From Candidatus Nomurabacteria bacterium (GTDB lineage Bacteria > Patescibacteriota > Minisyncoccia > Phycocordibacterales > UBA9973): a DNA stretch of 50,290 nt. The notes beneath the pieces were generated by a model, which saw only the letters and a program-made list of their open reading frames with translations, had not been told where the DNA came from and searched no databases. Positions 19,953-49,751 of the stretch are shown one piece after another. Both the position numbers and the translations under genes were made by a program. The stretch lies in assembly GCA_023267375.1 (NCBI GenBank), contig JAHFNJ010000007.1:1-50290 (forward strand), read 5' to 3'. Every line of letters starts with the position of its first letter. Positions within the stretch are counted from its first letter, which is position 1.

Positions 19953-20498
19953 TTAGTTTTTTTCTAAAGAAGCCTTGTTTTGTAAAGCTTTTCTGGTAAA
20001 AAGCGCTGTAATGATTGCAGCAAATCCCGTAAATGCCATCAGGGGAATTGTAATGTAGCCGAATTCGAAGATGTATCGCCGTGCACAGGAAACTGTTGTT
20101 CCACATGGAATAATCTCTGAACCGCCCAACTCAATATAGTAGTGATATACAGAAAGGATAATACCGATGATCGAAAAAATGAGCGCATAGCGTAAGATCT
20201 TTTCTTTTTTCTTATACAGAGCAACTCCGAAAAACAATAGTTGTGGGTACATAAAAACGCGTTGCCACCAACACAGTGTGCATGGAGCGTAGCCAACGAT
20301 ATTTGAATAGAAAAGCGAAAGGAGAATTGATGCAAGTGAAACGAGCAGTCCAATATAAAGAGCGTACGCTGATACAATGTGAAGCCACTTACTTTCTTTT
20401 TTAAAAAAGAAAAAATAAAGCGTGATGAGGATCCCTACTTGAAGCAATACTATTCCTAAAGCCAGGAGATGGTTTATTGTGGGGAGGATTGCTTGCAT
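19953..20498 (-). CDS. Disulfide bond formation protein B (DsbB/BdbC family)
   Basis: SLFYS..VGYAPCTLCWWQRVFMYP, second Cys pair (PCG...SC), GYITIP.MA. Confidence 0.88.
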   Translation of the reverse strand: MQAILPTINHLLALGIVLLQVGILITLYFFFFKKESKWLHIVSAYALYIGLLVSLASILLSLFYSNIVGYAPCTLCWWQRVFMYPQLLFFGVALYKKKEKILRYALIFSIIGIILSVYHYYIELGGSEIIPCGTTVSCARRYIFEFGYITIPLMAFTGFAAIITALFTRKALQNKASLEKN

Positions 20499-20510
20499 GA
20501 AAAGTTTAGT

Positions 20511-20903
20511 TTATGAAGGTAGTTCGCACCCCGTTTTCTCGGCTAATGTTTTCAGTGAGACACCGCTCGATGTTTCAACGGGAAGGCGAGTGCCGTCTGC
20601 AAGTTCCCATGTCGGGTATGATTTGATTTCTTTATCTTTGCAGATTTGTAGTTGGTCACTTCCATCAGGAGTTGAACATTCTATATATGGTAAAAATTCT
20701 ACTGATGCGCCAAACATTCTTTTTTGTGCTTGGCAGTGTGGACACCAGAACGCACCATAAAACTTTGCACCTGATTTTTCTAGGCATTGTGCGAATGCAT
20801 CATACTTGTGAGAACTTGCGATTCCTTTTTGGATAGCGCGCATACCGATGACGACCGCAAGAACAATGATGATGAAGATGATTATATTTTTTTTATTTGT
20901 CAT
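20511..20903 (-). CDS. Membrane-anchored thioredoxin-like protein (resembles the Trx domain of VKOR-Trx fusions)
   Basis: N-terminal TM, FYGAFWCPHC..QK.MFG, YIEC, C....IKSYPTW. Confidence 0.8.
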   Translation of the reverse strand: MTNKKNIIIFIIIVLAVVIGMRAIQKGIASSHKYDAFAQCLEKSGAKFYGAFWCPHCQAQKRMFGASVEFLPYIECSTPDGSDQLQICKDKEIKSYPTWELADGTRLPVETSSGVSLKTLAEKTGCELPS

Positions 20904-20907
20904 AAAA

Positions 20908-21216
20908 TTATTTTTTATTTTTTAATGATAACTGATGCAGAATACGGCACGGTTCGACGATGCGTGGATCGATTATATTGTAGTAACCGTTTAATCCTTT
21001 GCGATGAACGGTGACTAGTTTTGCATGGCGAAGCAATGCCAAATGTTGTGACACATTTGCCTTGGCGACTCCCAGCGTTTTAATAAGTTGTTCTACAGAC
21101 ATTTCTTGTTCGCGGAGCAGGTTCAAAATTTCCAATCGCTTTGGATTTGCGAGGATTTTATAGGTTTCAGCATTCTTTTGGTATGCAGTTCGTGGGAGGG
21201 GTTGTTTGATCTCCAT
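20908..21216 (-). CDS. ArsR/SmtB family transcriptional regulator
   Basis: KILANPKRLEILNLL...SVEQL...ANVSQHLALLR winged HTH; ATG at 21216. Confidence 0.9.
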   Translation of the reverse strand: MEIKQPLPRTAYQKNAETYKILANPKRLEILNLLREQEMSVEQLIKTLGVAKANVSQHLALLRHAKLVTVHRKGLNGYYNIIDPRIVEPCRILHQLSLKNKK

Positions 21217-21254
21217 AGTTTCTAAAGTATGCAACAATTAGACCCAAAAAGCAA

Positions 21255-23105
21255 TTACGCTTCTTTTTTCACAAAGCGGAATATAAGTGCGATAACCAGC
21301 ACCAGAACTGTTCCAATGAGTATATTATTTTTTATGGTAGTACCACTCGTTGCCACATTTGCGAGTAGTATATTTTGTTGTGTTGTTTCAGTTGGTGTAT
21401 TAATTGTCGGTGGCTCTATTGGTGAAGGTGCTATCGTTTGTGTCGTGATTATTTTTATTTTTTCAGCAGTCACGATCGGTGTAGATTCTTTAAGTTCTTG
21501 TCTTGGTACTGGCGTAAAAATTTCACCCCATGTCTTACCGGTGATTGCTGGAATCGCATAGCTTGTTGCCCAGATTCTATTTTGGACTGACTCTGTTTCT
21601 TTGAGTACTCCGCCATCTTTTGATTGATTCATTCCTAAATAGGCAACTCCATCTTTGCCGTTTTTCTCCCAGGCTGCTTTTTGTGCCTTTTCAGCCTGAA
21701 GTACCCAGCTTGTTGTATACACTGAATTCCATCCGCCGTCAGGTTGCTGTGCGCTTTGTAAAAATGTTTCAGCTGCTGACAGTGCGTCTTTGGCAGTTGG
21801 TACTTTTGAGAGTACCTGGATCGCAGCAGCGGTGAGGTCGATACTTCCTTCCCACGATCCGTCATCACGCTGTTTTGAAATAATAAACTGCAGATCCTTT
21901 ACAACAATATCATCGTGCAGTGTGTATCCGGCGCTCAACAGCGGAATGAGTGCGAAAATATCATCGTTCACGAGCGATGCATCGCCAAATTGTGTGCCGT
22001 CGAATGATTGTGTGATCGGTGTAATATAGTCTGTGCCATGAAAGGCGTACGGATTTTGTGAAAGGGCGAGGAGTGCCATGGTGTGGCGTTCGTTTTCGGT
22101 GAGCATTCCGTCAATAGAATTATGTGATTCCATGTAGCCAAGAATTTTGAGGCGCACGTCATCTGGCATCTTTTGAGTGGCAAGTGCAATGCTTGCCCAG
22201 TCGGTATATAAACTATTGTCACCAAATGAGCCGTCGGAATCCTGCGTGCTCAGAAGGTAGGTGACTGCGCTTTCAAGATCAAATATGTGTTGTACTGGTG
22301 CTGAGCCGCCGCTTGATTTACCCTCTTTTTCTACAACTTCCGGAATGGTTACGAGGACTTCGTAAGCGGGGAAATAGTAATCTTCGGCGATGCCAATAGT
22401 GAATGTTCCTGGTGTTGGCAGAAGGAGTGAAGCAGTTCCTGTACTATCAACTGCCTGAGACATCACGACTGTGGGGTTGTATAGATCATCGGGGTTGGGG
22501 ACGGTCGCGCCAATTGTTACTCCTTCTAGTGGACCCCAGCTATTATCGAGGTAGTTGTATGTCTCGGCCGTCGCGAGCAATGGTTCGCCTTGTACGAGAG
22601 CGGTGGAACTCAAAACTACCTGGTGCGGCGATCCGAAATAGATGCCAATAGTTTCTCCACCGGCCAGCGTTGTTGCGTCCATCCCGACTGAAGGAGTTGT
22701 GCCATCAATGACATACTGCCAATTATCGCAGAGTTCGCCACTTGTCTGCCCCTTGATGCATTTCAGATAGAGTGAATCGAAAGAGCTGTAGTATTCAATA
22801 TCAGAGAGCGAGAATGCATCGCTCGTTTGATCAAGTGCATACAAAAAACCAAGCACAGTATTGTTTGGAATTGTGTGTGTTGCTCCAGTGCTGTCGACAA
22901 CATCAATAGAGCCCGCTGTCGGAAATGAAACTGCTCCATCGAAGAGAATGGTGTCGCCGCTCCGAATAAGCAGGTTTTCTGTGGGTGACGGTAAAACAGG
23001 GTCGGGGAGTGGCGCGTCCTCTGCGTGTACATAAGCGGAAGGAGCGAGCCATATAAGAATAATCACACAGCAAACGAATATAACTTTTTTCACTGTAGGT
23101 TCCAT
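21255..23105 (-). CDS. Surface protein with a DUF4430-like domain, prenyltransferase/squalene-oxidase-like repeats and a C-terminal TM
   Basis: WQYVIDGTTPSVG (DUF4430-like); QDSDGSFG, QRDDGSWEG, QQPDGGW repeats; N-terminal signal and C-terminal anchor. Confidence 0.75.
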   Translation of the reverse strand: MEPTVKKVIFVCCVIILIWLAPSAYVHAEDAPLPDPVLPSPTENLLIRSGDTILFDGAVSFPTAGSIDVVDSTGATHTIPNNTVLGFLYALDQTSDAFSLSDIEYYSSFDSLYLKCIKGQTSGELCDNWQYVIDGTTPSVGMDATTLAGGETIGIYFGSPHQVVLSSTALVQGEPLLATAETYNYLDNSWGPLEGVTIGATVPNPDDLYNPTVVMSQAVDSTGTASLLLPTPGTFTIGIAEDYYFPAYEVLVTIPEVVEKEGKSSGGSAPVQHIFDLESAVTYLLSTQDSDGSFGDNSLYTDWASIALATQKMPDDVRLKILGYMESHNSIDGMLTENERHTMALLALSQNPYAFHGTDYITPITQSFDGTQFGDASLVNDDIFALIPLLSAGYTLHDDIVVKDLQFIISKQRDDGSWEGSIDLTAAAIQVLSKVPTAKDALSAAETFLQSAQQPDGGWNSVYTTSWVLQAEKAQKAAWEKNGKDGVAYLGMNQSKDGGVLKETESVQNRIWATSYAIPAITGKTWGEIFTPVPRQELKESTPIVTAEKIKIITTQTIAPSPIEPPTINTPTETTQQNILLANVATSGTTIKNNILIGTVLVLVIALIFRFVKKEA

Positions 23106-23485
23106 ACGATTTCATCCCCCTGGTGTGGGACATATGAAGAGACGCCGACGGACGCTTCTTTACCATTAATAAAATACATAAGGTGCAAGCCATCATGTTC
23201 ATGGAGTGATCCGATATCAGTTACAAAAAATCCGATTCCTGGGTATGTTTTTCCTGAGAAAGAAATGCGACCTGATTGTTGTGCATGGATTAATATTTCA
23301 TAGAATGTGTCTCCGCTTGAGAAAGGAAGTGATACTGATACTCCTCCTATTACTACCGGAAGATATTCGGTTGCTGAGTAGGTTCTGTCCGGCTGCTTTT
23401 GCGTGGATTCTTTGCCGTAGTGAATACTAAAAATAATACCGACGATACAGACACAAATAAGTAATACGATGTTTCTTTTATTCAT
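23090..23485 (-). CDS. Membrane-anchored DUF4430 (transcobalamin C-terminal-like) protein
   Basis: GIGFFVTDIG....MYFINGKEASVGVSSY..HQGDEIVW. The ATG at 23485 overlaps the pduO stop. Confidence 0.8.
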   Translation of the reverse strand: MNKRNIVLLICVCIVGIIFSIHYGKESTQKQPDRTYSATEYLPVVIGGVSVSLPFSSGDTFYEILIHAQQSGRISFSGKTYPGIGFFVTDIGSLHEHDGLHLMYFINGKEASVGVSSYVPHQGDEIVWNLQ

Positions 23486-24047
23486 ACTGTGGTGCATGTT
23501 CACTAAAACCTTCTTGATAGTTTGCAAAGCGTGCCATCGCGTAGAGGACACTCGATAGTCTGTTCATGAATCGGAGTGTTGTTTCTCCTATCTGGTGGGG
23601 CTCTTTTTCAAGGCAGACAATAATCATGCGCTCGGCGCGCCTGGCAATACTGCGACAAATATCAAGGTAAGCACCTGTTTCGCCTCCGCCGTAGACAGTG
23701 AATGAATGTATGGGCGGAAGCAGTGTCTCAATTTCCGCGGTGACCAATTCTGCAAATAGCACTGCCTCATCGGTAATTTTTTTATCGGCTCCACCAAGTT
23801 CTGCTTGGATGGTGAAAAGGATATTCTGTAATTGATTGATAATTGTTTCGTAGGATGTTTTCACCCCCTTGATTCCCACGGTGTCTCCCGATTTTGTAGC
23901 CAATACTTTTGCATAACCTAACGATGCATTCAATTCATCGAGCGTGCCGAGCGCTTCAAAAACGGGTGCACTTTTTAAATGACGCACTCCTTGCGTGGAG
24001 TTAAAGAGCTTCGTTGTTCCGTTGTCTCCTTTTCTGGTGTAGAGCAT
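23478..24047 (-). CDS. pduO: ATP:cob(I)alamin adenosyltransferase, PduO type
   Basis: LYTRKGDNGTT, GTLDELNA.LG, RSIARRAER, NRLSS.LY..AR. Confidence 0.92.
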   Translation of the reverse strand: MLYTRKGDNGTTKLFNSTQGVRHLKSAPVFEALGTLDELNASLGYAKVLATKSGDTVGIKGVKTSYETIINQLQNILFTIQAELGGADKKITDEAVLFAELVTAEIETLLPPIHSFTVYGGGETGAYLDICRSIARRAERMIIVCLEKEPHQIGETTLRFMNRLSSVLYAMARFANYQEGFSEHAPQYE

Positions 24048-24052
24048 AGTAT

Positions 24053-26320
24053 TTAAATTTCACACAGCCCTCCCGCACAGGCGAGCTCGCGTTTCACCTC
24101 AGTACTATCCTCTTTTTCATAGGTGACAATTTTTGAAAAATCGAGATCACCCAAGCGCTTGGTCATTTCCTCATACTTTTCCTTGGTGATTGCTTCATAG
24201 GGCGCAAGTTGGTAGACATGGTTTGATCGTGGTAGGAATGAAAGGCCGCCGACGAGGTCCCAGTTTTCATAGACCCAGTGTGCGACTTTGAGCCACTCAT
24301 CATCGCCTACAGAAATGGTGACAGATGGATTGTGTTCGGTGTAGTGCTGTTTGACGATCTTCCAGTGCTCAAGTTGTTCGATGGCGTTGATATCATCTTT
24401 ACAGATCGCTCCTTCCGGCGCTTTCACCGGGAATTCAAGGACGAAGGTCGAAGCGTTTTCAACGGTCTGTCCGATTTCCGGATAGTAAGGAACACCTTGG
24501 TCTTTGAGCATTTTGAACAACGTGTCAGTCGCTGAAATGCGGACGCGGCGGATATAGTACGGTGCATGGCGCGGGTGCATGCCTGAAGCGCAGTCGACGG
24601 TTTGCGAGACCGTGCCCGATGGTTTGACGCAGGTGATGCAGGTCGATTGATTGACGCCAAACTTCTTTGCGTACTTTTTGTTTGTTTCAATTGCCACCGC
24701 TTTCATTTTTTCAAGCATTTTGGGATCGCGGGCGAGTGCTGAGTCCCATTGTCCGGTAATTGAAACACCGAGCAGTCGTTCCTTTTCGCAATTTTTCTTC
24801 CACTCTTTTGAAAGGTAGGGGAAGTAGGTGAGTGTTGATTGGTACGTTCCCAAAATGGTTGCGATGCGTACTTTCTCGAGTAATGTTTTTTCGGTATCAT
24901 CGGCGCGGGCAACAACTTCCGATAAATTACAGAACTGTTTCGATTGCAGAATAATTTCTCCGCATGGATTTGTTCCCCATGCAGGGAGTGGGGCATCTTT
25001 CCATTGATTCAGTCGGCGTTTTGGTAGTGTGCCCAAGAGTCCACCACGGTTAAAAATGCCTCGTTCACCGCTTTCACTTTTAACGAGCGCAATCCATTCA
25101 TCGAGAAATTCCGTGGTTGTTGGTTTTGAAAGGTAGACGGCCGAGTTGTTGGCGAGCATGCGCTGGCCTTCGGAAATATAGAACTGGCCTTTCTTTGAAT
25201 CACGGATTGCTTCATCGTCGAGGTCTGACAATGAAATCATCGCGCTGCGGCGCACGCCGCCGGCTACGACGCATTCGCCGATTTTGCAGATAATATCGTG
25301 CGCATCAAGGTTTGAGAGGTGTCTGCCTTGGCGACGGAGGATACGCTCACGCGAGAATGAGAGCAGTGATTCAAGCGGAGCTGGTCCGGAACTTTTGCCA
25401 CCCATCGTCTGGAGGCGTGATCCTGCCGGGCGGATTTGGGAATAGTCAAAGGTAACGTCATCTCCATCAAACCACGTTTTAAGACCGAAGGCGAATGCAT
25501 CGGCCCACCCTTCTTTGCTATCGGGGACCACATAGGTTGGCAGTTTTTTGCCTGTTTGCTTTTGGATCTGGGGAAGTGCTTGAATATTGTCGCTTTCGAC
25601 TGACCAGCCGACACCAGTGCCACACATCGAGATGTACATGATTTCGGCAAAATCTTGGAATGTTCGCGGTGCGATAAACGAGCAATTATATGCACAAACA
25701 TTGGTCCGTCGGGCAGCTTTTCCGGCAAATTGGAGGAGCCGCATCGATGGCATCGATTCTTGATTGAGCACTGCTTCTCGGAGTTCTCTGTATTCGTTTT
25801 CGGTGAGCTTTGATCCGATATTCTCGCGCATGAACGCGATGTAACGGTCGATGGTCTCAACCCATGTCTCGCGCCGATCTTCTTCGGGTATCCATTTGGC
25901 GTAGCTTCGATAGTACACAAATTCAGCGAGCGGGTTTCTGAAATACTTTTTACTTTCGATAGCGAGCTCGCGTACTTTCTCGGGTACCGTGCCTACTTTT
26001 TCACGAATGAGCGAGCGCTCTTTTCGATAGAGAATGTATGACTTTGCTGCCTGTAAGAATCCTGATGCAATCAGTTCGTTCTCGACGATATCTTGTATCG
26101 TTTCTACATGCGGGATAAATACTTTAATCTTCTTTTCTTTTTTAAATGCGAGCAGTGCATCTAAGACATGCGTCATGACGGCGCGTGCATCAATCTCGGT
26201 GCCTTCCTGTACTGATTGCATGGCACTCGTGATCGCTCTCGTAATACGTTTCTCATCAAACGGCACAATGGTACCATCGCGCTTTTGAATAGTTGAAAGC
26301 GCGCTATACTTTTTTTTCAT
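24053..26320 (-). CDS. nrdJ: Adenosylcobalamin-dependent (class II) ribonucleotide reductase with an N-terminal ATP cone
   Basis: ATP cone (IQKRDGTIVPFD), YYRSYAKW, GGVRRSAMI, TNPCGEI active site, TCVKPSGTVS, C-terminal CAGGLCEI. Confidence 0.94.
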   Translation of the reverse strand: MKKKYSALSTIQKRDGTIVPFDEKRITRAITSAMQSVQEGTEIDARAVMTHVLDALLAFKKEKKIKVFIPHVETIQDIVENELIASGFLQAAKSYILYRKERSLIREKVGTVPEKVRELAIESKKYFRNPLAEFVYYRSYAKWIPEEDRRETWVETIDRYIAFMRENIGSKLTENEYRELREAVLNQESMPSMRLLQFAGKAARRTNVCAYNCSFIAPRTFQDFAEIMYISMCGTGVGWSVESDNIQALPQIQKQTGKKLPTYVVPDSKEGWADAFAFGLKTWFDGDDVTFDYSQIRPAGSRLQTMGGKSSGPAPLESLLSFSRERILRRQGRHLSNLDAHDIICKIGECVVAGGVRRSAMISLSDLDDEAIRDSKKGQFYISEGQRMLANNSAVYLSKPTTTEFLDEWIALVKSESGERGIFNRGGLLGTLPKRRLNQWKDAPLPAWGTNPCGEIILQSKQFCNLSEVVARADDTEKTLLEKVRIATILGTYQSTLTYFPYLSKEWKKNCEKERLLGVSITGQWDSALARDPKMLEKMKAVAIETNKKYAKKFGVNQSTCITCVKPSGTVSQTVDCASGMHPRHAPYYIRRVRISATDTLFKMLKDQGVPYYPEIGQTVENASTFVLEFPVKAPEGAICKDDINAIEQLEHWKIVKQHYTEHNPSVTISVGDDEWLKVAHWVYENWDLVGGLSFLPRSNHVYQLAPYEAITKEKYEEMTKRLGDLDFSKIVTYEKEDSTEVKRELACAGGLCEI

Positions 26321-26868
26321 AGCGTTTTGTATTTTTTATTAGTAATAATTGAAACAGCTGACCGTGATGCATTTTTATTTTTTGCTGCAAGCGTATAGAT
26401 CATTGGTGAGAGGAGTATTGCGAAGCTGACATTGCCAAGGAGGTGGAGCGCGGTGAATGGGATCTGCCCGATGAGCGCTGCCATGAATGGTTGGTGAAAA
26501 AAGAGCGGTCCGATTGAAAGTCCGGTGACTGCATCGTACGCAAGCGTTCCCATAACGGCGAATGCCGCGTAATTTCTCACACTACTTTTTTTATTCTTGA
26601 GATACGCGTATGCCCAGATGCCGAGCGCTCCGTAGGCGAAGGCGGTAATGATCGTCCACACTCCGATTTTACCAGTGAGAGCATCGAAGATGACCATGCT
26701 TGAGAATGCAAACAAGAAACTGGCGGTTTTGCCGTAGGCTTTAGCAAACGGCATCTCCATGGCGAGGATCGGTTCGATGTTTGGCGCGCGGAAGGGGAGG
26801 AGTCTGACGATAAGACAGACGAAAAATCCGATACTATATATAGAGAGATTGTGTTTAGGGAGTTTCAT
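26317..26868 (-). CDS. Predicted ECF-type S-component membrane protein, probably for cobalamin uptake
   Basis: About 6 TM segments, R..P...PNIEPILA motif; stop overlaps the nrdJ start (ATGA). Substrate inferred from context. Confidence 0.6.
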   Translation of the reverse strand: MKLPKHNLSIYSIGFFVCLIVRLLPFRAPNIEPILAMEMPFAKAYGKTASFLFAFSSMVIFDALTGKIGVWTIITAFAYGALGIWAYAYLKNKKSSVRNYAAFAVMGTLAYDAVTGLSIGPLFFHQPFMAALIGQIPFTALHLLGNVSFAILLSPMIYTLAAKNKNASRSAVSIITNKKYKTL

Positions 26869-27074
26869 AAATGTATGAGTGCACTGTTTCATATATATCA
26901 CTAAACGAGGTATACTAGTTTAGTAGTTGCGAAACTATGCAACTGATTGGGAGTTTATTATACGCGAGCTTCGTCATCTCGCGAAAGTGGATAACTGATA
27001 GTGATACAGAAGCAATCATTCGTAAAGCACTACGTGCAAAAAAGGCGAAAATTGCTGTATACTATTTAGTATAT

Positions 27075-27638
27075 ATGGAAACAATTAATAATTTTGTAGA
27101 AATTCCTGAACCAAAACTCTCGCGTTTTTTGTTCTCGAACACGAAGATGGCATGGTTCTGGCTTATTGTTCGCGTGTACGTCGGTTGGCAGTGGATCGAA
27201 GCAGGGTGGGGAAAAATCCACAATCCCGCATGGGTGGGAAGTGATGCCGGTCAGGCCTTGTCTGGTTTTATCCAAGGGGCGCTCGCCAAAATGAGTGGTG
27301 CGCACCCAGATGTGCAAGGATGGTACGGCACTTTTTTGCAAAACGGAGTGCTTCCGCATGCAAGTCTGTGGTCACATGTGGTTGCGTACGGTGAGTTGTT
27401 GGTTGGTGTGGCACTCGTGCTCGGCCTCTTTGCTGGAATTGCTGCATTCTTTGGAACTTTCATGAATTTCAATTTTCTTTTAGCGGGGGCAGTATCCGTG
27501 AATCCAATTCTTGGATTTTTAGGACTCTTCTTGATTTTGGCATGGCGTGTTGCCGGCTGGTGGGGGCTTGATCGCTGGGTATTGCCGGCGGTCGGTACTC
27601 CGTGGAAACCCGGGGAACTGTTTACTAAAACGCAGTAA
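27075..27638 (+). CDS. DoxX/DoxD (TQO small subunit) family membrane protein
   Basis: WLIVRVYVGWQWIEAGWGKI, VAYGELLVG..L.LGLF, FMNFNFLLAG, LDRW. Start METINN at 27075. Confidence 0.85.
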   Translation: METINNFVEIPEPKLSRFLFSNTKMAWFWLIVRVYVGWQWIEAGWGKIHNPAWVGSDAGQALSGFIQGALAKMSGAHPDVQGWYGTFLQNGVLPHASLWSHVVAYGELLVGVALVLGLFAGIAAFFGTFMNFNFLLAGAVSVNPILGFLGLFLILAWRVAGWWGLDRWVLPAVGTPWKPGELFTKTQ

Positions 27639-27654
27639 TTCTAGTCTCTGTACC

Positions 27655-27686
27655 AAAAAACACTCCGCCTATCCGGGGTGTTTTTG
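27655..27686 (+). terminator. Intrinsic terminator after doxX
   Basis: AAAAACACTCCG-cctat-CCGGGGTGTTTTT. Confidence 0.65.
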
Positions 27687-27695
27687 TTTGGATAC

Positions 27696-27724
27696 TTGAC
27701 TCATACCCCCCTAGGGTATATACT
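27696..27724 (+). promoter_or_regulatory. csoR promoter with a CsoR-type operator in the spacer
   Basis: TTGACT-17 nt-TATACT. The inverted repeat ATACCC-cccta-GGGTAT (27703-27719) is the G/C-tract type bound by CsoR-family repressors. Confidence 0.85.
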
Positions 27725-27731
27725 CTCTGGT

Positions 27732-28004
27732 ATGAAACAAGACATTAAAGTAAAAGCGCTTCGTCGCCTAAAGATTATCGAGGGGCAAGTGCGAGGATTG
27801 CAGGAGATGGTCGCCACTGAAAAGTACTGCATCGATATCATTACCCAGGCTTCGGCGATTAAAGAAGCGCTCTCGGGAGTAGAGGATTTGGTTTTGGAAA
27901 ATCACCTGTCGACGCACGTCATTCACCAGATTATGCACGGCAAGCAAGATCAGGCGACGAAGGAAATTTTGAAAATATATAAATTAGCCCAGAAGAAAAA
28001 ATAA
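27732..28004 (+). CDS. csoR: CsoR/RcnR family metal-sensing repressor
   Basis: LRRLKIIEGQVRGL..M....YCIDII.Q...ENHL; first gene of a copper operon. Confidence 0.88.
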   Translation: MKQDIKVKALRRLKIIEGQVRGLQEMVATEKYCIDIITQASAIKEALSGVEDLVLENHLSTHVIHQIMHGKQDQATKEILKIYKLAQKKK

Positions 28005-28007
28005 CGT

Positions 28008-30302
28008 ATGAGTACGAACGTCTACAAAATTAAAGGCATGCACTGTGCAAGTTGTGCCAGTATCATTGAACGGACCGTCAAAAAAATTGATGGGGTAGTC
28101 GACGTGTCGGTAAATAACGGGACGGAAAATGCCAAAATTTCTTTTGATCCAAACAAAGCCAGTCCGGAAATTTTTAATACAAAGTTGGAACCGTTGGGCT
28201 ATTCACTTATCGTTCCGCAAACTGCTAGTGAAATGGCGATGAGTGAGAGCGAACATGCGGCGCATCTGGGACTCCATCAATCAAAAAAAGAAAAACTAGC
28301 TGAAATTGCGTCGATGAAACGAATCGTTCTCTCGGTGATACCGCTTGCCATCATTAGTGTTTTTATAATGGGATGGGATATTTTTGCACAATTCCAATTA
28401 GTTGGAGAGATGCCATTAGTCTGGGAAGAATTTTTTCATCATTTACTCCCCATTATGGCGACGTACACACTTTTTGTAGCAGGAAAGCCATACCTGCTTG
28501 GGCTCTATCGCTTTATACGATATGGTAAGGCAAATATGGATACGTTGATCGGGCTCGGTACTTCTGTGGCGTTTCTCTACAGCTTCATTGCTAGTGCGTT
28601 TGAAGAGACGCTCCTTAAATCATTTCCAAATGTATCGACTACGTATTTTGATGTGACGATTATCGTCATTACATTTATCGCACTCGGAAAATATCTTGAA
28701 ACGCGCTCAAAATTAAAAACAGGTGATGCAATCGAAAAATTACTGAATCTCCAGGCGAAAACCGCGCTGGTTATTCGCGATGGCAAGGAAGTTGAATTAC
28801 CGATTGGGCAAGTCGTTCATGGTGATTTGGTTATTGTAAAACCGGCTGGGAAAATTCCCGTTGATGGTGTTGTTGTTGAAGGCAGTTCATATGTCGATGA
28901 ATCGATGATTACCGGAGAGCCAATGCCGGTGTCTAAAAAATCAGGGGACACTGTTGTCTCAGGGACCATAAACACCACGGGCTCATTTACCTTCAAAGCG
29001 ACAAAGGTTGGCGCTGAAACGATGCTTGCCACTATCGTTCGCATGGTTGAAGAGGCCCAAGGGAGCAAGGCGCCGATCCAGGCGCTCGCTGACAAAATCT
29101 CAAGTATTTTTGTACCGATTGTGCTCGGTATCGCCGTCCTGTCATTTGGTGCGTGGCTATTTTTTGGCACAGCATCGCTTGGCTTCTCGCAGGCACTTTC
29201 GTACGGACTCGTTTCGTTTGTCGGAGTGCTCGTGATTGCCTGTCCGTGTGCGCTTGGGCTTGCGACGCCAACCGCGATTATTGTGGGCGTAGGCAAAGGT
29301 GCTCGTGAAGGCATTTTAGTCAAAGATGCGAGTACACTTCAAAAGCTTCATAAAGTAAATGTTGTTGTCGTTGATAAAACAGGAACGATCACTAAAGGAA
29401 AACCAGAAATTGTCTCAACTAAAACTATCTCCGGCGAAGAGACAAAAAATCTTTCAATCTTAGCTTCGCTTGAAAACAAATCAGAACATCCAATCGCGCA
29501 TGCTATTGTTTCAAACCTCAAAGAAAAGCAGGGGAGCATGTTGCCTGTAGAAAAATTCGAAGCGCTGAAAGGGAGGGGGGTGAAAGGAACAATTGAGGGC
29601 ATCGACTATTTTGCGGGAAATACAAAACTAATTACGGATATGGGCATTACGTTTGATCTGCAATCAATTGAGAAAGAAACAATGGAAGGTAAAACCCCGG
29701 TTATATTGGCAACAAAGGAAAAAATTCTTTCTGTTGTCATGGTTGCTGATGCGGTAAAACCAGAAGCGATCGAAGCTGTACATAATTTACATAAACTTGG
29801 AGTAAGGGTGGTCATGCTCACCGGAGACAATGCAAATACGGCACGGCACATTGCGGATGTTATCGGTATCGATGAGGTCGTCGCAGAAGTAATGCCAGAG
29901 GATAAATTGAATAAAATAAAAGCATTGCAGTCAGAAGGAAAAATTGTCGCAATGGCGGGTGATGGAGTGAATGATGCCCCAGCGCTTGCGCAGGCGGATG
30001 TTGGCATCGCGATGGCAACGGGTACTGATGTGGCGATCGAGTCAGCCGGGATTACATTATTGCACGGAGATATTTCCAAATTGGTAAAAGCTGTTCGTCT
30101 GTCACGACTGACAATGCGCGGAATAAAACAGAATTTGTTCTGGGCATTCATTTACAACATCATCGGTATTCCGCTTGCAGCGGGATTATTCTTCCCGATT
30201 TTTGGGTGGTTATTGAATCCGGTTTTTGCAGGATTGGCGATGGCGATGAGTAGTGTCTCTGTGGTCGGGAATTCGTTACGAATTAAAAGTAAAAAATTAT
30301 AA
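28008..30302 (+). CDS. copA: Copper-translocating P1B-type ATPase
   Basis: MHCASC metal-binding domain, [26 protein letters not shown]...PL.AG, MAMSS. Confidence 0.96.
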
Positions 30303-30307
30303 ATTAT

Positions 30308-31312
30308 ATGCAAACATACACATTTCATGTTTCGGGTACACATTGTGCTTCATGTAAAATATTGATCGAAGATATTTTGAGTGAGCAGGGACTTGTGCGC
30401 GAAGTGCACGTCGATCTCAAAAAAGAAACGGTTACGGTCGCGACGACGAGCGATAAAGCACCGGAAGAACTCGCAAGTATTTTAACTGGCGCAATTGCAA
30501 AGAATGGCTATACGCTCTCCGTTGAGAAACTAAGCACTCCTCAAGATAATGGTGATATTTGGAAGGCGATACCAATCGGTCTCGCGTTTTTGGTGCTCTT
30601 TTTTATCCTACAGAAGTCTGGCCTTCTGAATCTTGGCATCGGTGGTGTGACAACTCCCGTGACGAGTTTTATCGTTGGGCTCATCGCTTCAGTTTCGAGT
30701 TGTTTGGCGATTGTTGGTGGCCTCGTCCTGTCTCTATCCGCTGAGGTTTCAAAAGATAACGTGAGTGATAAAAGAAACATTATCCTCTTTCATGTCGGTC
30801 GAGTTGGCGGGTTTGCATTGCTTGGTGGGGTGCTCGGATTGATAGGGGATGCTGTTGGGATCAACTTTGTGTTCACGGCAATCTTAGGATTGATTGCATC
30901 CCTTATTATGCTTCTACTAGGACTTGATCTTGTCGGTATTGCAAAAAAGAGCAAAGTCACCTTGCCCTCTGGAATCTTTAAATTTTTTAGACGTGTAGAA
31001 CATAAAACATTTACTCCGCTTATCATTGGTGTCGGCACATTTTTTTTGCCATGCGGGTTTACCCAGTCCATGCAGTTTGTGGCGCTCTCAAGTAGTTCAT
31101 TTATGACAGGGTTTCTCATTATGTTAGGATTTGCTTTAGGCACACTTCCGGTACTCGCGTTCCTTTCCTTTGGTTCGGCTTCGATTGCGCAATCAAAACA
31201 CGCACCGCTTTTCTTTAAATCGGCCGGAGTTGTCGTTATTGGGTTTGCAGTCTTTGCCTTACTTGCTGGCCTTGCAGGTCTCGGTATTATTAATCCTTTA
31301 TTTACAATATAA
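30308..31312 (+). CDS. HMA-domain plus TauE/SafE (DsbD_2)-like membrane protein
   Basis: N-terminal THCASC; SSCLAIVGG, FHVGR, FFLPCGFTQ..Q, FALGTLP. Confidence 0.82.
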   Translation: MQTYTFHVSGTHCASCKILIEDILSEQGLVREVHVDLKKETVTVATTSDKAPEELASILTGAIAKNGYTLSVEKLSTPQDNGDIWKAIPIGLAFLVLFFILQKSGLLNLGIGGVTTPVTSFIVGLIASVSSCLAIVGGLVLSLSAEVSKDNVSDKRNIILFHVGRVGGFALLGGVLGLIGDAVGINFVFTAILGLIASLIMLLLGLDLVGIAKKSKVTLPSGIFKFFRRVEHKTFTPLIIGVGTFFLPCGFTQSMQFVALSSSSFMTGFLIMLGFALGTLPVLAFLSFGSASIAQSKHAPLFFKSAGVVVIGFAVFALLAGLAGLGIINPLFTI

Positions 31313-31315
31313 GTT

Positions 31316-31708
31316 ATGAATAAAACAGTATCAGTTATTATTGCACTTATACTCATCGCCGGAATTGTGTATGTTGTTACCCGCCAGCCGGTAAAGAATA
31401 GCAGTAGTACTCAAGTCTTACAGAATGTTGAGGTGAAGGAGGGGATTCAGTATGTGACGATCGATGCGAAAGGAGGATACTCGCCGAGAATATCAACTGC
31501 AAAAGCCGGGATACCGACAAAGCTTATTGTTAAAACTGACGGTACGTATGATTGCTCGTCATCATTAGTTATAAACGAGATCAATTATAAAAAAATATTG
31601 CCTCAGACTGGCGAGACCGAAATAGATCTGGGGACCAAAAATGCCGGTGAAACACTGCAGGGTTTGTGCGGTATGGGGATGTACAATTTTCAGGTGAGGT
31701 TTGAGTAG
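31316..31708 (+). CDS. Membrane-anchored cupredoxin-domain protein
   Basis: GGYSP....AKAG.P..L, DCSSSL, C-terminal CGMGMY. Confidence 0.82.
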   Translation: MNKTVSVIIALILIAGIVYVVTRQPVKNSSSTQVLQNVEVKEGIQYVTIDAKGGYSPRISTAKAGIPTKLIVKTDGTYDCSSSLVINEINYKKILPQTGETEIDLGTKNAGETLQGLCGMGMYNFQVRFE

Positions 31709-46191: not shown

Positions 46192-46305
46192 ATGAACTCC
46201 GAAACGAAAGTGTGCCAAAACTGTCCCGATTTTCTTGAATTCATTAGAAAATCGAGGATCCGCGATTCTGATCTTGATAGTCAGAATCGGGATAAAAATA
46301 TATGA
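46192..46305 (+). pseudogene. 37-codon micro-ORF: remnant N-terminus of the Cys-rich family, interrupted by an in-frame palindromic insert
   Basis: MNSETKVCQNC resembles the starts of the two downstream paralogues; its TGA overlaps the ATG at 46302. Confidence 0.55.
46224..46292. mobile_element. 69-bp miniature palindromic element with 8-bp terminal inverted repeats
   Basis: TCCCGATT...AATCGGGA enclosing two CGATT...AATCG hairpins; its removal restores AAC TGT AAA AAT (N-C-K-N). Confidence 0.55.
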
Positions 46306-48050
46306 ATACTAGTAGTAGTGAAAAGAGAATATGTCAGAACTGCAAACAAAACTTCACCATCGAACCGGATGATTTTTCTTTTTACGAGAAAATTAAGGTT
46401 CCTCCGCCGACGTTTTGTCCGGAGTGTCGTATGGTTAGACGTCTTGTTTGGAGAAACGAACGCTCGTTGCATCGAAGAGAGTGTGGCCTCTGTAAGAAAA
46501 GTATAATCAGTATGTATAAAAATGACGGAGCTCCTGTTTATTGCAGTGAGTGTTTTAATGGTGATCAATGGGACCCATATACCTATGCGATTGACTACTC
46601 TTTTTCCAAGAATTTTTTTGAACAGATTTGTGAACTTTTTAATAAAGTACCTCGATATTATAAGTATGGTTTTGGTAATCTAATAAATTCAGAATATACA
46701 AATTACACTAAAGACAACAAAAATGCATACCTCTCTTATTCGGTAACAGGATGTGAAGATGTTGCGTATTCTGCGATCATAGACAACTCAAAAAATTCAA
46801 TTGATTGTCTTGCTGTAATGAATGTGGAGAGTTCCTCGTATTGTGTTGATGTTGAGAAAAGTTACAATGTTCACCACGTTATTCAGTCTATTAACTGTGT
46901 TGACTCATTTTTTCTTTACGATTGTGCAAATTGTACTAATTGCTGCCTAAGTTCAAATCTCCGCAATAAACAGTATTATTTCAAAAATCAAAGAATGTCT
47001 AAAGAAGATTACTTTAAGGCGATTGAAAGCCTCCATCTCAATACTTATTCTGGTGTTGAAAAAGCAAAAGATAAATTTCAGGAGATTCTTAAAAACGCGA
47101 TACATAAATATGGGTCAATATACATGGCTGTGAATGTAACTGGCGATTATATTCACGACGCGCGGAATGTAAAATACGGCTTCGACACAAATAGCGCGGA
47201 GAATATTTCTTATGGCAATCGAGTGATCGACGTCAAAGATTCCATGGATATAACAGGAGTGGGTTTTAAAGCGGAAATGATCTATGACTCCGTAGCGGTA
47301 TCTGGGACCACATTTAATGATCGTTTTTGTTATATAACAACTCAGGGGTGCCGGGATTGTGAGTATTCATTGCTTCTAAAAAATTGCTCGGATTGTTTTG
47401 GTTGTGTAAGCCTTACGAATGCAAAGTATTGTATTTTCAATAAGCAATTTACCAAGGAAGAGTATTTTTTGATGGTAGAAAAAATTAAGAAACAGATGAT
47501 GGAAATGCCATATGTTGATGCAAAGGGAAGAGTGTATATGTACGGCGAATTTTTCCCCTACGAGTTATCTCCTTTTGGATATAATGAAACAAATGCCCAC
47601 GACTTTTTTCCTCTGTCAGAAGAAACGGCTAACGAACGCGGCTATAATTGGTTCAAGAGAGAAAAAAGGGACTACAAGATAACGAAAGATTCTAATGATT
47701 TACCAGATAGTATTCTTTATGCAGACGATTCTATTCTTTCTGAAACTATCGCTTGCCCGAATAATGGGGACGCAACAACTCAATGCACCACAGCATTTAA
47801 GTTAACTCCTGAAGAGTTGCAGTTTTATCGACAAAAGAATCTTCCATTGCCACGGTTTTGCCCTAACTGTCGTCACTACGAGCGTTTGAAGTATAGAAAT
47901 CCGATGCGGCTCTATCAGCGTTCTTGTATGTGTGCACAAGAAGGACACGATCATTCAGGGAAGTGCTCAAATGAATTTGAAACAAGTTATGCGCCGGATC
48001 GTCCCGAGAAAGTATATTGCGAAAGTTGTTATCAGAAAGAAGTGCTTTAA
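46302..48050 (+). CDS. Cys-rich zinc-ribbon-repeat protein (paralogue 1)
   Basis: CQNC, CPEC, CGLC, CSEC; C..C..C repeats (CSDCFGC); C-terminal YAPDRPEKVYCESCYQKEV. Confidence 0.85.
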   Translation: MNTSSSEKRICQNCKQNFTIEPDDFSFYEKIKVPPPTFCPECRMVRRLVWRNERSLHRRECGLCKKSIISMYKNDGAPVYCSECFNGDQWDPYTYAIDYSFSKNFFEQICELFNKVPRYYKYGFGNLINSEYTNYTKDNKNAYLSYSVTGCEDVAYSAIIDNSKNSIDCLAVMNVESSSYCVDVEKSYNVHHVIQSINCVDSFFLYDCANCTNCCLSSNLRNKQYYFKNQRMSKEDYFKAIESLHLNTYSGVEKAKDKFQEILKNAIHKYGSIYMAVNVTGDYIHDARNVKYGFDTNSAENISYGNRVIDVKDSMDITGVGFKAEMIYDSVAVSGTTFNDRFCYITTQGCRDCEYSLLLKNCSDCFGCVSLTNAKYCIFNKQFTKEEYFLMVEKIKKQMMEMPYVDAKGRVYMYGEFFPYELSPFGYNETNAHDFFPLSEETANERGYNWFKREKRDYKITKDSNDLPDSILYADDSILSETIACPNNGDATTQCTTAFKLTPEELQFYRQKNLPLPRFCPNCRHYERLKYRNPMRLYQRSCMCAQEGHDHSGKCSNEFETSYAPDRPEKVYCESCYQKEVL

Positions 48051-48074
48051 GAAATAATAAGTAACTAATTTCTA

Positions 48075-49751
48075 ATGAATACAGAAACAAGGCAATGTAA
48101 AAAATGTAATCAAAATTTTACGCTCGATGCGGATGACTTTTCTTTTTACGAAAAAATGAAAGTGCCAGCTCCACATGTCTGCCCTGATTGTCGATTTAAG
48201 ATGCGGGCACTTTTTCGCAATGAGATGTCACTTTATACTGGACGCAAGTGCGGGTCGTGCCAGAAAAATATTGTGACAATGTACAATCCAAAATCTCCGT
48301 ACACTGTGTATTGTCTCGATTGTTACAAAGGCGATTCATGGGACCCACGAAGTTATGCGAAAGAATATGATTTTAATCGCCCCTTTTTTGAGCAACTGAA
48401 AGAGTTGCTCCTGCAAGTTCCGAAAGCGTCCTTGTTCGATGCCGCGGGGTATGGCCCAAATGTGAATAGCGATTTCACGAATGCGAGCGCACTTTTAAAA
48501 AATTGTTACTTCCTTTTCAATAGCGGCCCAGATGAAGAGTCACTCTATTCTCGCGGCATTGATTTATGTAATGAAGTCAGCGATGCATATTTTTGTGTTA
48601 AAGATGAACAGTGCTATGAGATCATCAATACACATGAATGCAACAAGGTGATGTGGGGGCAAAATCTCAAAGGGTGCGTTGATTGTTCTTTGTGTGAAGA
48701 CCTTTCAGGTTGTACGAATTGTTTTGGTTGCGTTGGTCTCCGCAACAAGTCATATCATCTTTATAATGAACAGGTCTCAAAGGAAACCTATGAGATATTT
48801 ATGGAATCTTATCGAGGTTCATATGTGCGACAACAAGAAGAACAGGAAAAATTTAAAAAATTCAGATTGCAATTTCCTAAGCGAGAAAATCATAATTTAA
48901 AAACAATTGATTCGATTGGAGACTATCTTCACGAAACAAAGAATGTAAAACAGTCTTTTGAAATAAGACTGGGTGGTGAACATTCTAAATACTGCTTCTC
49001 AGCAAAAGGCGTTAAAGATTCATATGGGACGACAGGGTATAGCGTAAAGTCGGAAATGCTGCTCGAGTGTGTTTCGACCGGGAATTCTTCTCGTGTTATT
49101 GGCAGTTATGCTATTGATCAATCAACGGATATTTTCTATTCTTTTTCGTGCCGACCAAGCAACGCACATTTGATTGGATGTGATTCAATGAAGAATGCTG
49201 AGTACTGTATTCTCAACAAACAGTATTCAAAAGAAGAGTACGAGAAAATATATGAACATATAGCGAAAGAACTGGTGGAATTGGGAATTCACGGGCTGAT
49301 GATGCCTCCAGAGCTTGCTCCGTTCGGTTATAACGAAACATTGGGGAACGACAATATCATGCTTACCAAAGAAGAAGCATTGGCTGAAGGGTTGCCATGG
49401 CAAGACGACATTCAGATGACAAAAGGGAAGGAGACAATGAAGCCTGAGCAAATTCCAGATCACATCAAAGATGTACAAGATGGAATTGTAAAAGAGATTT
49501 TGAAATGCATCGACTGTGAACGTAACTATAAAATTACCGAACAGGAACTTGGATTTTATCGGAAGATGATGTTGCCGATTCCACGTAAGTGCTTCTATTG
49601 CCGCCACAAAGATAGAATTGTTCGTCGTGGACCATATAAGTTCTGGAATCGAAATTGCGCGCACTGTAATAAAGAGATTGTGACCAATTATGCGCCCGAA
49701 CGACCCGAAATCGTTTATTGCGAGAGTTGTTATCAGCAGGAAGTGATCTAA
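48075..49751 (+). CDS. Cys-rich zinc-ribbon-repeat protein (paralogue 2)
   Basis: Same architecture: CKKC, CPDC, CGSC, CLDC, CTNCFGC, YAPERPEIVYCESCYQQEV. Confidence 0.85.
   Translation: MNTETRQCKKCNQNFTLDADDFSFYEKMKVPAPHVCPDCRFKMRALFRNEMSLYTGRKCGSCQKNIVTMYNPKSPYTVYCLDCYKGDSWDPRSYAKEYDFNRPFFEQLKELLLQVPKASLFDAAGYGPNVNSDFTNASALLKNCYFLFNSGPDEESLYSRGIDLCNEVSDAYFCVKDEQCYEIINTHECNKVMWGQNLKGCVDCSLCEDLSGCTNCFGCVGLRNKSYHLYNEQVSKETYEIFMESYRGSYVRQQEEQEKFKKFRLQFPKRENHNLKTIDSIGDYLHETKNVKQSFEIRLGGEHSKYCFSAKGVKDSYGTTGYSVKSEMLLECVSTGNSSRVIGSYAIDQSTDIFYSFSCRPSNAHLIGCDSMKNAEYCILNKQYSKEEYEKIYEHIAKELVELGIHGLMMPPELAPFGYNETLGNDNIMLTKEEALAEGLPWQDDIQMTKGKETMKPEQIPDHIKDVQDGIVKEILKCIDCERNYKITEQELGFYRKMMLPIPRKCFYCRHKDRIVRRGPYKFWNRNCAHCNKEIVTNYAPERPEIVYCESCYQQEVI

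Follow-up and report, generated by a model that had tools for sequence, protein, structure and literature searches.

A probable operon for corrinoid capture, import, activation and use in a Candidatus Nomurabacteria bacterium, related to the nrdJ-cbrS-cbrT-pduO cluster of Lactobacillales

A contig of 50,290 nucleotides from a Candidatus Nomurabacteria bacterium (JAHFNJ010000007.1, assembly GCA_023267375.1; the whole stretch is called the window here) carries an operon around nrdJ, a gene for a ribonucleotide reductase (RNR). Patescibacteria make up a large share of bacterial diversity, are not growable alone and lack most biosynthesis. The operon is probably a unit for capture, import, activation and use of corrinoids in Patescibacteria of the Paceibacteria/Nomurabacteria type, homologous to the nrdJ-cbrS-cbrT-pduO cluster of Lactobacillales. 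It represents a known kind of system in an enlarged form with probably different regulation, and combines the core of the Lactobacillus cluster with binders predicted in 2007. An earlier note on this DNA had described five genes on one strand with overlapping or near-abutting ends, encoding an S-component-like membrane protein, NrdJ, PduO, a DUF4430 protein and a DUF4430 protein with toroid repeats. All five are present at the positions it gave, and their functions were borne out by Pfam and NCBIfam assignments. In this order, neighbouring genes overlap by 4 nt, lie 5 nt apart, overlap, and overlap by 16 nt. The unit is nevertheless larger than described: eight closely packed minus-strand genes lie between 19953 and 26868, and an arsR gene, a gene for a thioredoxin-like protein and dsbB had been overlooked.

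The nrdJ gene (24053–26320, minus strand) encodes 755 amino acids with an N-terminal ATP-cone and class II insertion domain (PF21995, 37 bits), the active site motif NPCGEI and a C-terminal cysteine pair (CAGGLC). The best PDB match is 1L1L, the RTPR of L. leichmannii (E 7e-53). Compared to NrdJ of L. helveticus the protein shows 27% identity (E 4e-61) in an alignment that starts at residue 131 and extends to the two C-terminal cysteines. According to these sequence features NrdJ is a class II, adenosylcobalamin (AdoCbl)-dependent RNR of the monomeric RTPR type, and we count it as a divergent member because its score against TIGR02505 (RTPR), 299 bits, stays under the equivalog cut-off of 340. 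For PduO (23478–24047, minus strand), an ATP:cob(I)alamin adenosyltransferase, strong homology to PduO-type corrinoid adenosyltransferases was found (PF01923, 132 bits; TIGR00636, 130.4 bits, over the cut-off of 108.45), and identity to PduO of the Lactobacillus cluster amounts to 32%.

The gene preceding nrdJ (26317–26868, minus strand) encodes the membrane protein. Its open reading frame (ORF) is open to a GTG at 26901; the ATG at 26868, which yields 183 amino acids, was preferred because this length fits the homologues of about 181 amino acids. More than 1200 proteins, nearly all of about that size and labelled Paceibacterota, Nomurabacteria or Patescibacteria, belong to the family. An alignment-based AlphaFold2 model (pLDDT 84.5) contains six helices, and its best 22 Foldseek matches in the PDB are all S-components of energy-coupling factor (ECF) transporters (TM 0.6–0.73; 4huq_S, RibU, FolT, ThiT), so that the S-component fold on which the proposal of the earlier note depended is present. 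In Pfam the window protein reaches 22.2 bits against PF07155 (ECF-ribofla_trS), under the gathering score of 26.7, while an orthologue (P0045) reaches 33.9 bits against PF07155 and 34.5 bits against PF20221/DUF6580. The sole PDB sequence match of the family profile is 6fnp_A (E 0.019, 144 positions), which is CbrT of the vitamin B12 ECF transporter from Lactobacillus delbrueckii (PMC5997447). An hhalign comparison of the family with 13 Lactobacillus CbrT sequences gave a probability of 91.6% (E 8e-7, 142 columns, about 25% identity), and the motifs R..PN[IV][EQ]P, G[IV]WT, AY and H..GN are invariant in the family and in CbrT alike. A BtuM chain was found neither in PDB sequence searches at E ≤ 10 nor among the best 50 fold matches. 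Because of the lone PDB match, the hhalign score, the coinciding motifs and the missing BtuM chain, the protein is assigned on sequence grounds as a distant CbrT relative and is presumed to be the membrane carrier for corrinoids. A BtuM-type carrier was rejected, as these searches gave no similarity to BtuM and the conserved motifs are those of CbrT; of the two relatives envisaged in the earlier note, CbrT held and BtuM did not.

In Lactobacillus, cbrT lies in the nrdJ-cbrS-cbrT-pduO cluster, and transport of cobalamin and cobinamide by ECF-CbrT has been demonstrated (Santos et al. 2018, eLife, PMC5997447; PDB 6FNP). We checked this cluster in L. helveticus and in an L. delbrueckii-like contig. 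The cbrS position is occupied by a DUF4430 protein of 136–149 amino acids, to which the small DUF4430 protein of the window shows weak direct similarity (E 5e-4). The uptake route, called uncharacterised in the earlier note, therefore has known counterparts: the S-component is a remote CbrT homologue, the gene set mirrors the Lactobacillus cluster (PMC5997447), and binders of this kind were predicted in 2007 (PMC1796856).

To follow the membrane protein through related organisms, one genome per GTDB species was scanned for the S family, which is carried by 233 genomes; 80 loci were kept, 77 of them with Patescibacteria-type labels (Paceibacterota, Nomurabacteria, Saccharibacteria and such). 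An RTPR-like nrdJ directly adjoins the S gene in 75 of the 80 species-level loci, and co-occurrence with nrdJ, which the earlier note had made a test of its proposal, was thus observed. In one further locus the contig end is too close to judge adjacency. Three loci (L012, L017, L077) are true exceptions and not a result of masking, with an S gene among unrelated neighbours and no RNR next to it. A locus labelled Woesearchaeota (L059, 6237–11050) has S and PduO beside a different ATP-cone RNR of 1024 amino acids; an NrdR is encoded downstream in this locus, at the place held by arsR in others. Three arrangements are seen repeatedly: S-nrdJ-pduO-(arsR), S-nrdJ-pduO-DUF4430-large binder-(arsR), which is that of the window, and nrdJ-S-DUF4430-large binder-Trx-DsbB, referred to below as layout C.

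The two DUF4430 proteins are encoded behind pduO on the minus strand. The small one ends at 23090 and its start is uncertain (about 23497; ATG at 23497 or 23485, with the ORF opening at a GTG at 23551). It consists of an N-terminal membrane helix followed by DUF4430, a transcobalamin-like beta-grasp domain of the SLBB type (PF14478, 45.1 bits, gathering score 23.8). The large one (21255–23105, 616 amino acids) reaches 24.0 bits against the same gathering score of 23.8 and is composed of a signal peptide, the DUF4430/SLBB domain with two invariant cysteines, a beta-sandwich, an alpha/alpha toroid, a stalk rich in proline and threonine and a C-terminal transmembrane anchor. The toroid repeats match SQHop_cyclase_C with 37 bits, and an AlphaFold2 model (pLDDT 89) shows three domains, with the helical toroid at residues 238–490 of the model. 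A fold search with the whole model matched transcobalamin (2bb6_A, E 6.5e-6). Among 31 orthologues of the large protein, eight match the eukaryotic family PF01122 (Cobalamin_bind) and 17 match PF07678 (TED_complement). From these features we infer that the large protein is a transcobalamin-like putative corrinoid binder anchored at the surface. Some database records of orthologues carry the name terpene cyclase. This reading was rejected, since the protein is secreted and anchored, fused to SLBB and linked to B12 by riboswitches, and its squalene cyclase matches span the toroid repeats only.

In five relatives of layout C (L057, L062, L075, L078, L085) a thioredoxin-like gene directly follows the large binder gene, in four of them together with dsbB, whereas in the window the pair follows arsR (thioredoxin-like membrane protein, 20511–20903; DsbB, 19953–20498; both minus strand and assigned by Pfam). 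The two proteins may form an oxidative-folding pair for the secreted binders that oxidises the two invariant SLBB cysteines.

The absence of a recognisable cobalamin riboswitch from the window, stated in the earlier note, was confirmed by Rfam scans of the whole window at gathering scores and of positions 20500–28200 at E ≤ 10. The overlap between pduO and the DUF4430 gene leaves no room for such an element. A survey of 31 relatives that carry the DUF4430 pair (loci within L020–L088) gave a different picture: in 22 of them an AdoCbl or AdoCbl-II riboswitch lies directly ahead of the DUF4430 gene, and no other part of the locus contains one. This provides an independent line of evidence for a role of the pair in B12 acquisition, and according to its position S-nrdJ-pduO is outside riboswitch control. 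The window belongs to a minority type without riboswitch, like the remaining nine relatives. The arsR gene is present in 7/9 loci without riboswitch vs. 4/22 loci with riboswitch. The two elements are not strict alternatives, as both are present in four loci (L052, L066, L081, L087), and there is a partial trade-off between them, which is new here. A LOOT RNA (RF03000, 72.5 bits) in one Nomurabacteria relative (L021, 2453–2569) is unrelated to the operon.

The regulator gene (20908–21216, minus strand) encodes a winged-helix protein of the ArsR/SmtB family (NF033788, 80.9 bits, cut-off 55). Its identity across relatives, 68–92%, is the highest among the small proteins of the unit (S-component 48–65%, PduO 40–63%). 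The alpha3 CxC metal site is absent from its sequence; the segment DPRIVEPCRILH (D-x6-C-x3-H) in the alpha5 region is invariant in 33–34 of 34 orthologues. Upstream regions were compared by their k-mers, which revealed the inverted repeat AGTTGC-N8-GCAACT. A perfect 6-8-6 copy in the window, AGTTGC-ATAGTTTC-GCAACT (26925–26944, minus strand), begins 12 nt downstream of a TATAAT box (26957–26962) and about 55 nt upstream of the S ATG. A degenerate copy, TGTTGCATACTTTAGAAACT (21217–21236, minus strand), lies directly before the arsR ATG at 21216. Copies of the palindrome with up to three mismatches were found within 150 nt upstream of the operon in 28/30 loci with arsR vs. 0/25 evaluable loci without it (Fisher P about 1e-13, a value that overstates independence because the genomes are related), and a related copy lies within −80 to +40 of arsR in 25 of 30 arsR-carrying loci. 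Confinement of the palindrome to arsR-carrying loci makes it a likely repressor operator, and the ArsR protein is thus likely to repress the operon and its own gene via the two candidate operators. This candidate regulator-operator pair is new here.

Three further elements were seen in the same upstream region. A DnaA-box-like motif, AGTTATCCAC(T), is located about 120 nt upstream of the S gene (26987–26994, minus strand), and in 45 of 73 relatives (upstream regions of L010–L089) the 8-mer GTGGATAA/TTATCCAC is found in the 260 nt before the operon. The whole window holds five copies, compared to 1.4 expected. These motifs point to an effect of DnaA on nrd expression, in the way known from nrdAB of E. 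coli. Two similar AT-rich palindromes, TATACTA-AA-TAGTATA (27058–27073) and TACTA-AAC-TAGTA (26913–26925), lie between the DoxX gene and the operon and are distinct from the ArsR-type repeat.

Pfam scans of 48 ORFs in the 50-kb contig yielded no EcfA, EcfT or BtuCDF, in agreement with the absence of ECF ATPase, T component and BtuFCD noted earlier. The screen was extended to the flanks of 83 non-redundant Patescibacteria loci, comprising about 1.3 Mb or roughly 1.5 genome equivalents. No CbiQ/EcfT appeared among the families listed for 52 membrane ORFs of 200–340 amino acids in these flanks, a list that omits nine single-member families. Twelve of the 14 ABC ATPase ORFs were scanned and none is a genuine EcfA, as they show generic similarity only to the EcfA models (best ECF_ATPase scores E about 1e-50, far under the cut-offs of 315–330 bits). 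Among 62 further small polytopic ORFs in the flanks no other S-component family was found, and the only S matches were to the operon's own gene. As sampling was biased to the surroundings of the operon and the filters were crude, this screen is weak evidence on the ECF module. A linked ECF module is apparently lacking, which would be new, and our literature search returned no paper on ECF transporters or an nrdJ/B12 operon in Patescibacteria.

Taken together, the genes can be arranged into one pathway. The small SLBB protein and the large SLBB/beta-sandwich/toroid protein, both tethered to the membrane, would bind corrinoids outside the cell in a way that resembles the sandwiching of B12 by the two domains of transcobalamin. 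Import through the CbrT-like S-component is suggested by its fold, its remote homology and the synteny. PduO would then turn cob(I)alamin into AdoCbl, which would serve the RTPR-type NrdJ in making dNTPs under allosteric control via the N-terminal ATP-cone; both of these steps are predicted from strong homology. Comparative genomics further suggests that the ArsR repressor binds the 6-8-6 palindrome overlapping the transcription start as well as the copy before arsR, in an operon from which the riboswitch of the capture genes is absent.

How import is energised is where the alternatives lie closest together. The S-component could dock on an EcfAA'T module whose genes lie at another place in the genome, as in canonical group II ECF transport, and the operon would then be the orthologue, in the candidate phyla radiation (CPR), of a known system. 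We give this somewhat less than an even chance. CbrT requires its ECF module (PMC5997447), genes of group II S-components are normally unlinked to ecfAA'T, and SLBB genes lie beside CbiO/CbiQ in other bacteria (Burroughs et al. 2007, PMC1796856); the failure to find EcfT, a genuine EcfA or a second S-component family in the contig or the flanks points the other way, with the weakness of the flank screen already stated. We lean slightly towards an S-component that works without the canonical module. A more far-reaching version seems unlikely to us as a whole. It supposes that Paceibacteria-type Patescibacteria lack EcfAA'T and that a binder-loaded CbrT-like protein is a minimal, ATP-independent B12 route feeding perhaps the sole RNR. 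In the sublineage with arsR, the riboswitch would in part give way to a repressor of the ArsR family that has two 6-8-6 operators as well as an invariant D/E/C/H site and could sense cobalt, corrinoid or redox state.

A link to B12 might also be denied altogether, if the membrane protein imported a non-corrinoid such as cobalt or a nucleoside, or if the DUF4430/toroid proteins were adhesins or protease traps of the alpha2-macroglobulin type. The Pfam match of the S-component to a riboflavin family fits such an explanation, as do the best structural matches of the large protein, which contain the thioester domain of alpha2-macroglobulin and complement proteins, and the 17 orthologues matching PF07678. 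It is highly improbable all the same. AdoCbl riboswitches precede the DUF4430 pair in most relatives surveyed, the S family resembles CbrT and no other solved S-component at the sequence level, and the same set of DUF4430, S, PduO and NrdJ exists in Lactobacillus, where B12 transport was shown. We rejected an alpha2-macroglobulin-like thioester protein since no CGEQ motif is visible in the sequence of the large protein, and attribute the fold match to a generic combination of toroid plus beta-sandwich. The position of arsR, on the other hand, could be incidental, the gene belonging to adjacent metal or redox genes (Trx-DsbB downstream, a copper cluster upstream). Membership in the ArsR/SmtB metalloregulator family and the copper-homeostasis genes that flank the operon in the window and in two relatives (L001, L004) speak for this. 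We consider it improbable, because in 33 of the 80 loci arsR is found behind pduO or the large binder gene in otherwise quite dissimilar surroundings, because the palindrome at the S-nrdJ promoter accompanies arsR in 28 of 30 loci and is found in none of the 25 without it, and because Trx-DsbB also follows the binder genes in loci that lack arsR.

Several observations weigh against the corrinoid operon as we describe it. The S-component is only distantly homologous to CbrT (E 0.019 in the PDB search), and the window protein is below the Pfam gathering score. The fold search with the large protein is led by thioester domains of alpha2-macroglobulin and complement, with transcobalamin at rank 47, and the packing of the domains in the model is uncertain (pTM 0.56). 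The link between ArsR and its operators is built on related, non-independent genomes. Finally, solitary CbrT gave no B12 uptake in E. coli (PMC5997447), so that import without an ECF module would need a property which CbrT lacks.

Outside the operon, a divergent block of copper-homeostasis genes (26937–31708, plus strand) encodes DoxX, a CsoR-like repressor, a CopA-type P-type ATPase with HMA, an HMA-DsbD_2 membrane protein and a cupredoxin. Copper-type genes are again neighbours of the operon in two relatives, with a multicopper oxidase in L001 and a cupredoxin, an HMA-DsbD_2 protein and an HMA-ATPase in L004. In the flanks of the relatives 11 HMA-DsbD_2 genes were counted. At 46302–49751 the window contains two large ORFs of 582 and 558 amino acids, the second with treble-clef zinc-finger ends (PF13451/PF23477, weak).

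The distribution of the S family suggests that DNA synthesis in at least 233 species-level genomes depends on B12 from neighbours. This dependency could be used for cultivation by supplying corrinoids or B12-producing partners. The operon also offers a compact and tractable set of parts, comprising transcobalamin-like putative binders, a CbrT relative that is perhaps independent of ECF and a candidate pair of repressor and operator that would control a class II RNR operon.

The nrdJ-cbrS-cbrT-pduO cluster of Lactobacillales, reportedly described by Rodionov et al. in 2009, has all four gene types in common with the operon of the window (RTPR-type NrdJ, DUF4430/cbrS, CbrT-family S, PduO), and in both cases a B12 auxotroph supplies a class II RNR. 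The gene order S-nrdJ-pduO-DUF4430 is different here, the S-component is only remotely related, and NrdJ carries an ATP-cone that the Lactobacillus enzyme lacks. The 616-amino-acid SLBB-toroid surface protein and the ArsR regulator with its palindromic candidate operators are additional. Lactobacillus uses a shared ECF module, whereas none was found here in the window or in the flanks of relatives.

The binders resemble bacterial proteins in which SLBB is fused N- or C-terminally to toroids and which were predicted to be B12 scavengers (Burroughs, Balaji, Iyer and Aravind 2007, Biol Direct 2:4, PMC1796856). The examples given there include Ig-like inserts, a second SLBB paralogue in the operon and hosts without B12 synthesis (PMC1796856). 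Common features are a toroid C-terminal to SLBB, immunoglobulin-like inserts, a signal peptide plus anchor and a paired paralogous SLBB protein, as well as a host without B12 synthesis. Those operons usually contain CbiO/CbiQ (ECF A/T), which are missing here, and in our case the pair is joined to an nrdJ operon. Human and bovine transcobalamin, intrinsic factor and haptocorrin (2BB6) likewise use an alpha/alpha toroid and a beta-grasp domain as a pair that sandwiches cobalamin. In the large protein the beta-grasp comes first, a beta-sandwich is inserted between the two, a membrane anchor is added, and a second, free-standing beta-grasp protein accompanies it. BtuM of Thiobacillus denitrificans is reportedly a solitary B12 S-component-like transporter (Rempel et al. 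2018), a small membrane protein of S-component fold for which B12 import independent of an ECF module has been proposed. If there is no module, the CPR protein may function likewise. Patescibacteria relatives with a riboswitch share S, nrdJ, pduO, DUF4430 and the large-binder gene with the window and differ from it by the riboswitch ahead of the DUF4430 gene.

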